Below the pieces are notes generated by a model. It was not told the DNA's origin and made no database searches. It saw only the letters and a list, made by a program, of their open reading frames with translations. A stretch of 64,000 nucleotides of DNA from Escherichia coli (GTDB taxonomy: Bacteria; Pseudomonadota; Gammaproteobacteria; Enterobacterales; Enterobacteriaceae): assembly GCF_024502345.1 (NCBI RefSeq), contig NZ_JALDNN010000001.1, one strand, 5' to 3'. The translations under genes were made by a program, and so were the position numbers. Positions 54,241 through 60,409 of the stretch are shown here, piece after piece. Position 1 is the stretch's first letter. The number at the start of each line of letters is the position of its first letter.

Positions 54241-54438
54241 ATGTTTGTTAAGCCGAACAACGGGCTCAGCGTTCGCTGCCCCGTCAAGGGCATCCCATTG
54301 CCTAAAGAGGGTGCTGAAGTACCTGACAATATTTTCTGGCGTCGCCGTCTGAGCGATGGGGACGTGATCCTCTCTAAAAAGGATGAGGGCGCGCCAGAGA
54401 AACAATCATTACCTAAAAAAGCGGGAGAAAATGAATGA
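54241..54438 (+). CDS. hypothetical small protein (65 aa)
   Basis: ORF immediately upstream of, and overlapping, the sheath gene. Confidence 0.3.
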   Translation: MFVKPNNGLSVRCPVKGIPLPKEGAEVPDNIFWRRRLSDGDVILSKKDEGAPEKQSLPKKAGENE

Positions 54439-55937
54439 CCGTACCTTTCGCTCGTGTTCCCGATAACCTGCGGGTAGGGCTTTTCTTCGTTGAGTTTGAT
54501 AACTCAATGGCGAATAACGCCACTGCCACGCAGCGCACCCTGCTTATCGGTGGGATGCTCAGTACCGGCTCAACCCTCCCTGGTATTCCGCAGCGAGTTT
54601 CCTCTTCGGATACCGTCGGTGAGCTGACAGGAAAAGGGGGAATTCTGCAGGCCATGATGGCGGCGTATCAGAAAAATGATACCGCAGCCGAAGTCTGGAT
54701 CCTGCCGCTGGAGGAAGACTCCGATTCCATGGTGGCTGCAACCGGCACCATTAGAGTGAGCAGCGCACCGACGGAAACCGGAGTGATCTCCCTTTATATT
54801 GCTGGTGAGCGCATTCAGTTGACCGTTGTAGCAACAGATACGGTGGCAGCGATCGCCACCTCTCTGGCCGCGGCGATTAACGCAAAAACCACGCTACCTG
54901 TAACCGCCAGTGCGACTACGGATACCGTAACCCTGACCGCGAAGAATCTTGGTGCTACGGGTAATGGGATCGACATTCGCCTGAACTTCCTCGGCTTACC
55001 TGGAGGCGAGTCCACACCTGCAGGCCTGGAACTGACGATTACTGCTATGTCTAACGGAGTCGGGGCTCCGGATATTACCGGCGAGCTGGCAAACCTGCAG
55101 GATCGGACATTCGATTTCATCATCAACCCTTACGACGATACAACCTCGTTGAATGTGATGAAGGAGTTCCTGTCAGACACTGGCGGTCGCTGGGCATGGG
55201 ACAAGCAGCTTTATGGCCATTCCTTTGGTACAACCACCGGGACTTACGCCCAGCTCGGTACCAAAGGTGAGCTGCGCAATAACCAGCATGAGACCCTGCT
55301 GGGCGTAAATAAATCGCCGTCCCCTTCCTGGGCATGGTCTGCAGCTTACACCGGCGCAGCTGCGGTGAGTCTGCGTAATGACCCCGGCCGCCCGCTACAG
55401 TCGCTCGCTGTTCAGGGGGTGCTTGCGCCAGAACTGCAGGATCGCTTTGAGCTGACCGAGCGTAACAATCTGCTGTACAGCGGCATTTCGACATTTACGG
55501 TCGATGACGATGGCACGGTGCGCATTGAAAACCTGATCACCACCTACCAGAAAAACAGCTATGGCGATGCAGATGACAGTTATCTGGAAGTGGAGACGCT
55601 GTTCAGCCTGATGTTTGTGACCCGCTACCTGCGCACAGCGGTGACCAGCAAGTTTGGCCGTATGAAGCTTGCTGCGGATGGAACCCGATTTGCACCTGGC
55701 GCGGCGATCGTCACGCCAAACATTATCAAGGCCGATCAGATTGCCGAGTACCAGACTCTGGTATGGAACGGTTATGCGCAGGATGCGGAGGCATTCGCAA
55801 AAAATATCATCGTCGAGCAGAACGCCAAAAATCCGAACCGCGTCGATGTGCTGTGGCCGGGAACCCTCATGAACCAGTTGCGCATTTTCGCGCTGCTCAA
55901 TCAGTTCCGCACTCGGGCTGAATCAACAGGAGCTTAA
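54435..55937 (+). CDS. contractile tail sheath protein (Mu gpL-like)
   Basis: 500-aa protein followed by a 123-aa tube-size gene, a frameshifted chaperone and the tape measure: the canonical myovirus order. Confidence 0.7.
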   Translation: MTVPFARVPDNLRVGLFFVEFDNSMANNATATQRTLLIGGMLSTGSTLPGIPQRVSSSDTVGELTGKGGILQAMMAAYQKNDTAAEVWILPLEEDSDSMVAATGTIRVSSAPTETGVISLYIAGERIQLTVVATDTVAAIATSLAAAINAKTTLPVTASATTDTVTLTAKNLGATGNGIDIRLNFLGLPGGESTPAGLELTITAMSNGVGAPDITGELANLQDRTFDFIINPYDDTTSLNVMKEFLSDTGGRWAWDKQLYGHSFGTTTGTYAQLGTKGELRNNQHETLLGVNKSPSPSWAWSAAYTGAAAVSLRNDPGRPLQSLAVQGVLAPELQDRFELTERNNLLYSGISTFTVDDDGTVRIENLITTYQKNSYGDADDSYLEVETLFSLMFVTRYLRTAVTSKFGRMKLAADGTRFAPGAAIVTPNIIKADQIAEYQTLVWNGYAQDAEAFAKNIIVEQNAKNPNRVDVLWPGTLMNQLRIFALLNQFRTRAESTGA

Positions 55938-55940
55938 ACG

Positions 55941-56312
55941 ATGGCAGGTGATACTACTAACCGCCTGGCGGGAACCGCCTATGTCACTGTTAACGGTGTG
56001 ACGGTAATGGTGGAGGGCTCGTTTAAATACCAGGCTGCCACCGTAAACCGTACCACCCTGACAGGGATGGATGGTGTGCACGGATATAAGGAAAAACCTG
56101 TGGCGCCATACATTTCTGCCCGACTGCGTGACAGTGGCGGAACGAATGTGCAGGGCTTTAACCAGCAGACGAACGTCAACGTGATCGCCGAGCTGGCTAA
56201 CGGGAAAACTATCATTGGCCGTTCACTCTGGACGGTCAACGTCCAGGAAGTGGAAAGCGAAGATGCAGTATTTGATGTTCGCTGGGAAGGCCGCGACGTA
56301 ACGGAGAACTAA
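55941..56312 (+). CDS. tail tube protein
   Basis: 123-aa ORF directly after the sheath. Confidence 0.65.
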   Translation: MAGDTTNRLAGTAYVTVNGVTVMVEGSFKYQAATVNRTTLTGMDGVHGYKEKPVAPYISARLRDSGGTNVQGFNQQTNVNVIAELANGKTIIGRSLWTVNVQEVESEDAVFDVRWEGRDVTEN

Positions 56313-56313
56313 G

Positions 56314-56741
56314 ATGGCTGAGATTGAACGCGTTAAAACCATTCCATTAACCGTAGCGCTGGATGATGCTGCGGAGAAGACCACTTATACGCAGCTGGAG
56401 CTGAAAGCACCCACGCTAAGCCAGGCTGAGCAGTTTTACGAGAAACAGGCTGCGTCAACGTCGCTCGCGGCGATGCGCCTGCTTATTGCGCTGGTTTCCG
56501 GTACGCGTGAAAGCGTACTGCAGCCGATGGATTTTCTCGACTTCCGTAAGTGTGAGGAGTATCTGCTCAGTTTTTTGACCTGGAAGCCCTGACAACCTGG
56601 CAGGAAATGGCCGCTGACGTCACCTTCTATTTCCGCTGGTCTGAGGACAGGGCGTGGGGAATGACCCGCGCCCGGCTGAAATGGTGGGTGGCGCAGGCAT
56701 CCCGGATAAACAAGCTTAGGAAACCTGAAGACGATGAGTAA
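56314..56741 (+). CDS. tail assembly chaperone with programmed -1 frameshift (short form ends 56592; extended form to 56741)
   Basis: Slippery heptamer T-TTT-TTG at 56571-56577 in frame X-XXY-YYZ; the -1 frame stays open for 56 codons and ends 5 nt inside the tape-measure ORF. Confidence 0.65.
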
Positions 56742-58662
56742 TTCTTTTGATTTTGAGCTGGTGGCCAGCGACCAGGTTAGCGAGGCTATAGACCGCATTA
56801 ATGAGGCTGTCCGTGACCTGGAGCCGAAGCTAGATAAAACTAAAGAAGGGCTCAAGTTAGGCGGTCAGGAAACAGCCGACGGACTGAGCGGTTTTATTTC
56901 TCGCCTCGAGAATATGTCGAAGAGCGCGCGGGATAACGTGCAGTTTATTGGCGACATGGTTCCCCCACTGAAAATGGTGGGGGAGCTCACGGGGAAGATG
57001 GGGGCGCTGGGGTTAGCCGGTGCTGCCGGCTACGGACTGAAACAGGTCGCTTATGGATTTCGGGAGGCATCCCGTCAGGCCTATAATCTTGATGTCTCGG
57101 CAAAAAATGCGGGAATGCGCGTTGACGATTTTACCCGACTTTCCGGGGCAATGCGTATTCTTGGGGCAGACAGCGAGAGCGCTAATGCATCAATAGAAGG
57201 TATTTTCAAAGCATTCAATGAGGCTGCCAGTGGTAAAAACGAGGGGGTTATGGCAGCGATGGCGCAAATTGGTGCTCAAATCCAAAAAAACAGCGATGGT
57301 TCAGTAAATACCCTTAAAACACTGGAGTCTATCGCAAAAATTTTTCCAACCTTGCGACCTGAACAGCAGAAGTCCGCCGCTGATGCACTTGGGCTGACGC
57401 CCGAATTGCTGGCGCTAATGCGTGACGGTGAGCGCATGAAAAAGCTGCTGGCGAAATCGGATGAATTTGGTCTGACTGTGGATCCGGCACTAAATCAGCA
57501 ATTGAGTGAAGTGAACGGCACTATGAATGAGCTCAGCGCATCCTGGGATGGTCTGTGGCAACGTTCAAAAAACAAGGCACTTAAGACCATTCTTTCGGAT
57601 GGTTCAGTCAAAGACGGCCTTGAAGGTGTTACCGATCTGTTCACTAATGGTGATTTTACTGGGCTGTCTCATGCTCTCGGTTTTATCAACAGCAATGATG
57701 CTGAGAAACTACGGCGCATTCAGAACGATAAGGAACTTTATAACAGCTTACCCCGCAGTGAACGTGGGCAGGTTGACGCGGGTTTCATGACTGATGCTGT
57801 AAGAAAGCGGTACGATGCGAATTACCGCGCGACCGATTCTGCGATTCAATTGCAGAATGACTTATCCGCTATCAGCCAGCCACAATCCAACGTTGCACGC
57901 GGCAATGTTCCTTACGGGGAAACAAGGAATAACGCAATTGGCTTCAGAAATAATAATCCCGGTAATTTGAGGGCTGCAGCAAACGCAACGGGTAAAAATG
58001 GCGGATTTTCTACCTTTGCGAATGATGCCGACGGAAGAGCTGCAATGGCGAGACAGCTGATGTTGTATGGTGACAGGGGGAATAATACTCTGGATGGGAT
58101 TATTCATACCTATGCTCCGCAATCAGAGAATAATACTCGTGCATATATTGATTCCGTATCAAAAAGTACTGGGTTTGGAGCGCAGCAGCGTATTAATCTC
58201 CACGATCCTGATGTGTTAAAAACACTGATGGCAGCAATGATTAAACATGAAAGCGGAGCACAGCCGTATACCGAAAATGAACTGAGCGATTCTGTCCGGA
58301 CGGCCATCATTGACGATCGGTGGAAGGGTTTACGTAGCCCGGAAGTTCTGGCTCAACAGCGATATGATATTATCTCAGGTTCGCAAACTGGAAATCGTGA
58401 CTCCAGCACTCTTAGTAACCCGAGTGATGAAACTGATATTCTCTCAGGCTCGCAGAACAGAAATCGGGAATCCATCATTCTGAGTGATACGGGTAAGAAA
58501 AGTGATGAAAGTGTACTCGGCGACAATCTGGCTAAGTCTCTTAAAGAGGCAATGTCAGAACAACCACTTAAGCTCGAAATCACAATGGTTAATGATAAGG
58601 GTGAGCGAAAAACCTATAATGCGGAAAATAATGGCAGAATAACAACGGCCATGAATTACTGA
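56734..58662 (+). CDS. tail tape measure protein
   Basis: 642-aa ORF directly after the frameshifted chaperone pair; helical Ala/Leu-rich N-terminal part. Confidence 0.7.
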   Translation: MSNSFDFELVASDQVSEAIDRINEAVRDLEPKLDKTKEGLKLGGQETADGLSGFISRLENMSKSARDNVQFIGDMVPPLKMVGELTGKMGALGLAGAAGYGLKQVAYGFREASRQAYNLDVSAKNAGMRVDDFTRLSGAMRILGADSESANASIEGIFKAFNEAASGKNEGVMAAMAQIGAQIQKNSDGSVNTLKTLESIAKIFPTLRPEQQKSAADALGLTPELLALMRDGERMKKLLAKSDEFGLTVDPALNQQLSEVNGTMNELSASWDGLWQRSKNKALKTILSDGSVKDGLEGVTDLFTNGDFTGLSHALGFINSNDAEKLRRIQNDKELYNSLPRSERGQVDAGFMTDAVRKRYDANYRATDSAIQLQNDLSAISQPQSNVARGNVPYGETRNNAIGFRNNNPGNLRAAANATGKNGGFSTFANDADGRAAMARQLMLYGDRGNNTLDGIIHTYAPQSENNTRAYIDSVSKSTGFGAQQRINLHDPDVLKTLMAAMIKHESGAQPYTENELSDSVRTAIIDDRWKGLRSPEVLAQQRYDIISGSQTGNRDSSTLSNPSDETDILSGSQNRNRESIILSDTGKKSDESVLGDNLAKSLKEAMSEQPLKLEITMVNDKGERKTYNAENNGRITTAMNY

Positions 58663-59002: not shown

Positions 59003-60409
59003 GTGATGCCGTCAATTATCCAGGACGCAATAACTTCTCTTTTGGGGGGAGATACCAGCGATGACTGGCAGGGGCAGTTACGGCCCAGCTCATTCAGAGG
59101 TGTGCCATTTGCAATTGTTGCTGAGGAAGGGAGCCACGGCCGACGCCAGGCGGTACATGAATATCCCTACCGTGATACAGCCTGGATAGAGGATATCGGG
59201 CGGGCAACACGGCGATTTGTTATTCGCGGTTTCTTGATCCAGAACAGCCAGGTTTACGGCGGCGGCGATGCTATCACGCAGCGCCAGTCACTGATTGAAG
59301 CCTGTGAACAAAAAGGTAGCGGTACGCTTGTCCATCCGACACTGGGCGAATTAACGGTTTCCATCCCTGAGAATGGTTTGCGTATTTCCGGTTCGATGGA
59401 GAACGGGCGAGTATTTGAATTTACCCTGATGGCAATTGAATCAGGGCTTAAAGTGTTTGCTGTCACGGGCAGTACCGTTGCAGGCGCCACGGTGAAAACC
59501 AACTATCTGAAACTGGTCAGCACTGCTGTGCTGAGCACGATTGCCAGAGTTAAGAGTGAAATCCGCGGTGTCACACAGGCTATAAACACCATCAGAGGCA
59601 CGGTCACGTTCTGGACTAACATGGTTGACAGCACCATCAGTCAGGTCACGAATCTCAGCAATGTCCTGAACTCCACGTTCGGGAATACCCGGTACGGACG
59701 TTACAGTAAAGGCTCTGTGGGCGGTAGTTCCTCTGCTGTTGCTGGCAAATCGTCAGTTGCTGATGTGGATGATGAGAGAGCACTGGCTGACAAGGTAACA
59801 GCCCAGTCGGTAATGGACCGGAAAAATGTTACCGACAGGTCGAGCCAGCTTAGCAGCTCCAACACACCTGATGAGTTTGTCCAGGGCGTCGCCGACGTGG
59901 TAAACGCAATTCTTAACAGCGCCGGCAGCGTTAATGACCGAATCACAGCGCTGGAAAAACTGGCTAATTCAATCAGCACGGAGTACCAGCAGTCCGACAG
60001 CAGCAAAGCGATTTCGGCGACCATGAACACGCTGATTGTTGTGCTATGTACTGGTGCCATGACCAGTGCCGCTGCGGACTCCAGACCAGCCAGTACAGAC
60101 GAGGCAGAAGAGTTAACTCAACGAGTTTCTGTGCAACTTGATACGGCGCTGGTTCTGGCTGGAGACCGCGCGGACGATGATATGTATAACGCGCTTCTCG
60201 CCGTCAGATCGGCATTCCTTTCTACGATGAGTGAGCGTGCTTCTGGTCTGAGCGAGCTTCTGCAGGTTACTACCGCTCAGCCGCTTCCGGCGCTGACGCT
60301 GGCAAACCGATTATACCAGGATGCCACCCGTGCAGATGAACTGGTACAGGAAGCGCGCGTACCGCATCCGGCGTTTATGCCGACAACCATGAAGGTACTG
60401 AGGCAATGA
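59003..60409 (+). CDS. tail/baseplate protein (Mu gpN DNA-circulation-like position)
   Basis: 468-aa ORF, first gene after the tape measure. Confidence 0.5.
   Translation: MMPSIIQDAITSLLGGDTSDDWQGQLRPSSFRGVPFAIVAEEGSHGRRQAVHEYPYRDTAWIEDIGRATRRFVIRGFLIQNSQVYGGGDAITQRQSLIEACEQKGSGTLVHPTLGELTVSIPENGLRISGSMENGRVFEFTLMAIESGLKVFAVTGSTVAGATVKTNYLKLVSTAVLSTIARVKSEIRGVTQAINTIRGTVTFWTNMVDSTISQVTNLSNVLNSTFGNTRYGRYSKGSVGGSSSAVAGKSSVADVDDERALADKVTAQSVMDRKNVTDRSSQLSSSNTPDEFVQGVADVVNAILNSAGSVNDRITALEKLANSISTEYQQSDSSKAISATMNTLIVVLCTGAMTSAAADSRPASTDEAEELTQRVSVQLDTALVLAGDRADDDMYNALLAVRSAFLSTMSERASGLSELLQVTTAQPLPALTLANRLYQDATRADELVQEARVPHPAFMPTTMKVLRQ

Follow-up and report, generated by a model that had tools for sequence, protein, structure and literature searches.

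A predicted programmed -1 ribosomal frameshift in the tail assembly chaperone gene of an Escherichia coli prophage

Results

The Prophage and Its Tail Module

The DNA considered here, referred to as the window, is a stretch of 64,000 nucleotides from Escherichia coli (contig NZ_JALDNN010000001.1); all coordinates refer to this stretch and all features described lie on its + strand. The DNA corresponds to an E. coli prophage, which was encountered in 36 of 5426 complete genomes. Two sequenced phages are related to it. One is Citrobacter phage phiNP, with 77% nucleotide identity, a viable and temperate myovirus that has a contractile tail (PMC6456863); the other is Serratia phage BZS1, with 50% protein identity, in whose GenBank record the four homologues are labeled Mup39-42. 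The prophage is a temperate myovirus of the phiNP/BZS1-like type with a Mu-like tail module. Phage phiNP plates on E. coli K-12; the attachment site in tmRNA that was reported for it was not found in the window.

Examination of the tail module revealed genes for sheath, tube, chaperone, tape-measure and Mu N-like DNA circularisation proteins, in this order. The tail sheath gene (54435..55937; 500 aa), recognized by matches to Pfam Phage_sheath_1, Phage_sheath_1C and domain II, is followed by a tail tube gene (55941..56312; 123 aa) matching Pfam Tail_tube (PF10618; E=1.8e-35) and phrog_185. The adjacent ORF, at 56314..56592, encodes a predicted tail assembly chaperone of 92 aa, the equivalent of P2 gpE and lambda gpG. 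This ORF matches Pfam PF10109 (Phage_TAC_7; E=9.6e-9, 35.6 bits, with a cut-off of 25), a family described as 'Phage tail assembly chaperone proteins, E, or 41 or 14', as well as phrog_166 (tail protein), and was named 'phage tail assembly protein' by PGAP. The tape-measure gene (56734..58662; 642 aa) matches phrog_2276 (tail length tape measure; E=2.9e-152), with no Pfam match being obtained for its product, while the ORF at 59003..60409 is predicted to encode a Mu N-like DNA circularisation or baseplate hub protein (Pfam DNA_circ_N, PF07157; E=2.8e-30). Searches of solved structures and of NCBIfam returned no meaningful matches. The PF10109 match, together with the synteny of the sheath, tube, chaperone and tape-measure genes, bears out the assignment of this region to a tail module in the initial annotation, and the predicted PF07157 protein marks that module as Mu-like.

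Two further observations concern the tape-measure gene. Residues about 393-541 of its product match phrog_873 (E=2e-39) and phrog_7182 (E=9e-15), families annotated as endolysin or tail injection transglycosylase, which suggests that the C-terminal half of the protein contains an embedded cell-wall-degrading domain. In addition, the sequence AGGA (56718-56721) stands 12 nt upstream of the tape-measure ATG. Its AGG specifies arginine and is seldom used as a codon in E. coli, yet is invariant across the 56 relatives introduced below. The AGGA in question probably doubles as the Shine-Dalgarno sequence of the tape-measure gene.

Two Overlapping Reading Frames and a Slippery Heptamer

The chaperone ORF runs from an ATG at 56314 to a TGA at 56590-56592 and contains 92 sense codons. 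Close to its 3' end lies the slippery heptamer T TTT TTG (56571..56577), comprising six T's (56571-56576) and a G (56577). Because position 56571 is the third base of an AGT codon, such that the zero frame reads AGT TTT TTG, the heptamer stands in the X XXY YYZ phase; in relatives, Z is G or A. The heptamer is located 19 nt ahead of the zero-frame stop. When the -1 frame was re-inspected for stop codons, it was found to be open from the heptamer onwards, beginning with GAC (56577) and continuing for 54 sense codons up to a TAA at 56739-56741. This -1 frame extension (56577..56741) would be the equivalent of P2 E' and lambda T.

Translation of join(56314..56577,56577..56741) yields a predicted frameshift fusion of 142 aa (56314..56741), in which the peptide expected at the junction were ribosomes to slip is CEEYLLSFLDLEALTTWQEMAADVTFYFR (…LLSFLDLEAL…). 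The TAA that terminates the fusion and the tape-measure ATG (56734) share the octamer ATGAGTAA, with the overlap between the two coding sequences amounting to 5 nt when only sense codons are counted (the last ends at 56738) and to 8 nt when the stop codon is included. The geometry thus agrees with what had been claimed for this locus, namely an ORF of 92 codons ending at 56592, a heptamer in the X-XXY-YYZ frame and a -1 frame ending 5 nt inside the tape-measure gene; the 56 open codons that had been counted are the 54 sense codons of the extension and the two re-read TTT codons.

How often such an arrangement is encountered was considered by counting in-phase X XXY YYZ heptamers (with Y being A or T) in ORFs of at least 80 aa within the window. 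Seventy-two were found in 154 ORFs, several with long -1 extensions. As heptamers of this sort are so common, the count alone is uninformative as a test of significance, and a heptamer followed by an open frame is not in itself significant in the window. Rather, the chaperone heptamer is set apart from random occurrences by its position, by the gene family in which it is found and by its conservation.

Conservation of the Slip Site

Conservation was addressed in two scans. In the first, viral contigs provided 56 distinct relatives sharing 77-100% identity with the window sequence. TTTTTTG occupies one and the same position in all 56, and the -1 frame remains open as far as the same end point, in each case closing with GATGAGTAA. 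In four of these relatives (L048, L049, L050 and L060), TTTTTT is immediately preceded by a -1-frame TAG and, since this TAG abuts the T-run, the -1 frame can be entered only at the heptamer.

The second scan relied on an alignment of distant members and provided 65 distinct relatives of 45-100% protein identity. P2 E was left out of this alignment, as a version containing it lacked any sufficiently conserved block. In phase, T TTT TTG was seen in 55 of the 65 relatives and T TTT TTA in nine, with the one remaining member containing both TTTTTTG and TTTGGGG. The -1 frame spans 51-55 codons and always overlaps the tape-measure ATG, in the form of ATGAGTAA, ATGGCTAA or TAATG. At the same time, the heptamer lies 19, 37 or 49 nt ahead of the zero-frame stop. 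Change at the C-terminus of the short protein is, therefore, tolerated, in contrast to change at the slip site.

The codons at and next to the site were also compared. The codon 5' of the slip is AGT, GGT, TCT or ACT, thus specifying three amino acids and ending in T without exception. The slip-site phenylalanine is always encoded by TTT and the leucine always by TTG or TTA, never by CTN, the common CTG included. In these alignments, the constraint on the slip site acts at the nucleotide level.

In two relatives, L068 (3125-3276) and L069, a second in-phase TTTTTTG occurs 12 nt upstream of the conserved heptamer. This double site reads GAG GAT TTT TTG CTC GGT TTT TTG, and the -1 frame is open from both heptamers.

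Because a homopolymeric T6 run is present, and because the addition of a single U gives access to the same frame as does a -1 ribosomal shift, the possibility of transcriptional slippage was weighed. In such a scenario, RNA polymerase would add one U at T6 to generate mRNA with a U7 run, in which …SFFDLEAL… is encoded in frame. Efficient transcriptional slippage in bacteria requires runs of about 8-9 or more, whereas here the run consists of exactly six T's in every one of more than 100 distinct sequences. Moreover, slippage of tandem tRNAs calls for just such a strict X XXY YYZ phase and for Z being limited to G or A, and the identical site in P2 is annotated and described as a translational frameshift. 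One sequence could be cited in favor of transcriptional slippage, since its T7 run fuses the two frames at the DNA level. This sequence (P0001; L089:1501-1905), from Raoultella ornithinolytica (GCA_901420735.1), contains the chaperone and extension as a single 134-aa reading frame with …GFFELEAL… at the junction. The second nearby indel that it carries means, however, that an assembly error is the probable explanation. Transcriptional slippage is, as such, considered very unlikely.

As to P0001 itself, the T7 run (GGTTTTTTTGAACTGG) is accompanied by a second frame error about 130 nt later, near the C-terminus. Its status as a natural fusion was consequently rejected, with an assembly indel being most likely, and the sequence is evidence neither for nor against frameshifting.

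Coding Signature of the Extension

Selection on the extension was assessed from the variability at each codon position in the same 56 sequences. Read in the -1 frame, the extension showed values of 0.092, 0.037 and 0.223 for the first, second and third codon positions, respectively, third positions thus being the most variable. The upstream gene presented the same pattern (0.093, 0.054 and 0.309). The stretch between the heptamer and the zero-frame stop, which would be read in two frames, is almost invariant.

The extension could instead be imagined to be a small gene in its own right, encoding a 44-aa protein expressed from an ATG at 56607..56609 or by reinitiation after the TGA at 56590-56592, with no frameshift being involved. 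Indeed, an ORF beginning with this ATG exists (56607-56741), has the look of a separate 44-aa reading frame and matches phrog_10636, a PHROGs family of 44-aa proteins of unknown function, from end to end; gene callers, therefore, do call it separately. The start codon is, however, not conserved. Across relatives, the residue at this position is M, A, T, L, D, S, E or V, the ATG being missing in most, and it follows that the extension has no start of its own. Furthermore, the residues DLEALTxWQE, which lie N-terminal to the ATG, show conservation when read in the -1 frame, and Met is altogether missing from that region in several lineages. The AGGA found 1 nt upstream of this ATG in the window is too near to serve as a Shine-Dalgarno sequence. 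Finally, a separate gene would leave the nucleotide-level invariance of the in-phase heptamer unexplained. A separate small gene is accordingly regarded as highly improbable. Judging from its coding signature and from the unconserved start codon, the extension is translated, and only as part of the predicted fusion, with phrog_10636 probably representing a frameshift extension that has been systematically miscalled as a gene of its own.

That the arrangement simply reflects chance co-occurrence, or the decay of a prophage remnant in which no functional frameshift persists, might be argued from how common in-phase heptamers with open -1 frames are in the window and from how prophages are often defective, yet this reading is effectively refuted by the comparative data, given the full conservation of the site, frame length and junction down to 45% identity, the codon-position signature of purifying selection and the viable phages phiNP and BZS1 in the family.

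Candidate Stimulatory Elements

A downstream stimulatory structure, for which the initial annotation had proposed a check, was sought 3' of the heptamer, and no conserved RNA structure was found. Single-sequence folds of stretches 50-121 nt in length gave z-scores of +1.46, +0.31, +1.06 and -1.6, such that no structure was supported. When 37 distinct relatives were considered together by RNAalifold, only pairing of the U-run and a hairpin about 73 nt downstream were obtained. That hairpin was rejected as a stimulator, being too far from the slip. Folding of the BZS1, L086, L088, P2 and phiNP sequences likewise revealed no common structure. Downstream folds with z-scores from +0.3 to -2.1 shared no common fold, and the covariation term contributed only -1.19 kcal/mol.

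In the window, the distant hairpin occupies 56651-56674 and takes the form GGGCGTGGGG-AATGAC-CCCGCGCCC, inside the extension. It presents a few compensatory changes, with G-C being replaced by A-U in 6 of 37 sequences.

Upstream of the heptamer, a Shine-Dalgarno-like GAGGAG (56554..56559) is found at a distance of 11-13 nt and represents a putative stimulator of the dnaX type. Of 42 distinct family contexts, 41 have GAGG at this fixed position, although synonymous variation is seen in the neighbouring Cys, Lys and Arg codons. This conservation is confounded by the fact that the motif encodes conserved Cys-Glu residues; in one distant member, the sequence is GAAGAG. It is conceivable, by analogy with dnaX, that the slip is boosted by pairing of this internal Shine-Dalgarno-like sequence with 16S rRNA instead of by a downstream structure. 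Because the motif encodes conserved residues and because of the GAAGAG member, this role is put forward only tentatively. A related and similarly doubtful possibility is that, through termination of the fusion in ATGAGTAA, translation of the tape measure is in part coupled to the frameshift. If true, such coupling would tie the stoichiometry of the tape measure to that of the long chaperone.

The octamer ATGAGTAA is identical in the window (56734-56741) and in P2 (L084, 851-858) despite very low protein identity, with the tape-measure proteins beginning with MSNS and MSNN in the window family and P2. The identical junction may reflect translational coupling.

Discussion

A Model for Expression of the Chaperone Gene

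Taken together, the conserved heptamer, the coding signature of the -1 frame and the P2-like layout support the proposal made in the initial annotation, namely that the tail assembly chaperone gene of this prophage undergoes a programmed -1 ribosomal frameshift. On the basis of the sequence comparisons presented here, the probability of this predicted event is put at roughly 90%.

According to this model, most ribosomes would read 56314-56592 and release the 92-aa chaperone, while a minority would slip back by one base at the heptamer. From the geometry of the site and the P2 precedent, we infer that tRNA-Phe and tRNA-Leu slip in tandem on U UUU UUG. Specifically, tRNA-Phe, paired to UUU in the P site, and tRNA-Leu, paired to UUG in the A site, would re-pair to UUU UUU. 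Ribosomes that have slipped would then continue from GAC (56577) and produce the 142-aa fusion, stopping at the TAA (56739-56741) inside the tape-measure start.

For the presumed roles of the two products, lambda gpG/gpGT and P2 gpE/gpE+E' serve as the models. The N-terminal domain common to both forms would bind the tape-measure protein. Recruitment of the tube protein would fall to the extension and, with the ratio of long to short form being fixed and presumably low, the tube would polymerise around the tape measure. Again by analogy with these phages, both forms would be required for tails to assemble, and neither would remain in the virion.

Implications for Annotation

The 142-aa fusion is not annotated by RefSeq/PGAP in the 36 E. 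coli genomes that contain the prophage, where only the 92-aa protein is given, nor in the GenBank records of phiNP and BZS1, where only the equivalent of the 92-aa protein is listed. Nor did this frameshift come up when the phiNP and BZS1 papers were searched by term. Hence, while frameshifts of this kind are textbook material (P2 E/E+E', lambda G/GT), the present instance is unannotated. The finding confirms the tail-module assignment and opens no new question; its chief value is for annotation, in that the 142-aa fusion merits an entry with the ribosomal_slippage qualifier and phrog_10636 merits reassignment.

Comparison With Known Systems

In E. coli dnaX (gamma/tau), a -1 slip is reported to take place on a homopolymeric X XXX XXG heptamer (Larsen et al. 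1994). There, a Shine-Dalgarno-like element about 10-13 nt upstream and a strong downstream hairpin accompany an efficiency of about 50%. The spacing of GAGGAG in the window fits that of dnaX, whereas a dnaX-like hairpin is absent.

In lambda, gpG and gpGT are produced at a fixed ratio of about 30:1, and each binds the tape measure. The tube protein is bound by the T domain, and the virion contains neither form of the chaperone (PMC5009743). The logic is the same as that proposed for the window, with a shared N-terminus, two products, chaperoning of the tape measure and recruitment of the tube protein, whereas the lambda tail is non-contractile, the lambda heptamer is G GGA AAG and the lambda chaperone belongs to another sequence family. 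The initial annotation had described the locus as the conserved G/GT-type arrangement found upstream of tape-measure genes. In keeping with how this arrangement is recognized (Xu et al. 2004), two overlapping ORFs lie between the tube and tape-measure genes. In addition, the slip sequence lies inside the ORF overlap in a phase that permits re-pairing, and the second ORF lacks an initiation signal of its own yet is under protein-coding selection. The PF10109 match, the synteny and the invariant heptamer argue for a conserved chaperone frameshift upstream of the tape measure, so that this part of the description holds, but the closest model is P2 E/E+E' and not lambda G/GT.

In P2, a -1 shift at TTTTTTG yields a 91-aa gpE and a 142-aa gpE+E' (PMC3091744), as is also given in the P2 GenBank annotation; the sources named for this shift are Christie et al. 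2002 and Xu et al. 2004, as cited in PMC3091744. The corresponding products in the window are of 92 and 142 aa. P2 and the window share a contractile tail and a chaperone gene placed between the tube and tape-measure genes. The P2 slip DNA is GGT TTT TTG, the heptamer thus being identical to that of the window and found at the aligned Gly/Ser-Phe-Leu position; in a joint alignment of P2 E with the window family, the slip-site Phe-Leu (F87, L88) are invariant columns. P2 E+E' ends with …AATGAGTAA and overlaps the start of gene T by 8 nt, in the same octamer as seen in the window. P2 gpE is also a PF10109 protein (47.8 bits, versus 35.6 for the window protein). As in the window, a downstream hairpin is lacking in P2, which was reported to have no downstream stimulatory structure (PMC3091744).

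P2 and the window differ in other respects. P2 E and the short protein of the window share only about 14% identity, and the Shine-Dalgarno-like motif of P2 stands at a different distance from the heptamer. P2 E' was matched to a profile of 13 extensions with an hhalign probability of 82% (E=1.1e-5; 34 columns), BLASTP gave E=6e-4, and hmmscan of the window extension against PF06528 (Phage_P2_GpE) gave no match even at E<=10. The window extension thus appears to be, at best, a remote relative of P2 E'. Furthermore, the P2 tail genes are ordered FI-FII-E-T-U-D, with gpU and gpD being encoded downstream, whereas the downstream genes in the window are Mu-like, such that a P2-type context is not found.

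It is with Mu that the gene order of the window agrees, namely sheath (L), tube (M), chaperone, tape measure and N. Mu gp41 scores 24.7 bits on PF10109, just below the cut-off of 25 bits. This 144-aa protein matches PF23746 (Gp41_Mu; E=9e-35), a family that the window protein does not match. The Mu frameshift product (Mu_41/Mu_56) is annotated as resulting from a -2 shift, which has been verified (PMC2628397; PMC5009743), whereas the open frame in the window is the -1 frame. By these comparisons, the predicted site is of the P2 E/E+E' type and lies inside a Mu-like tail module. Mu-like tail modules can, as such, hold a P2-type -1 T6G site in place of the -2 site of Mu, and the shift mechanism is therefore exchangeable within one chaperone family.
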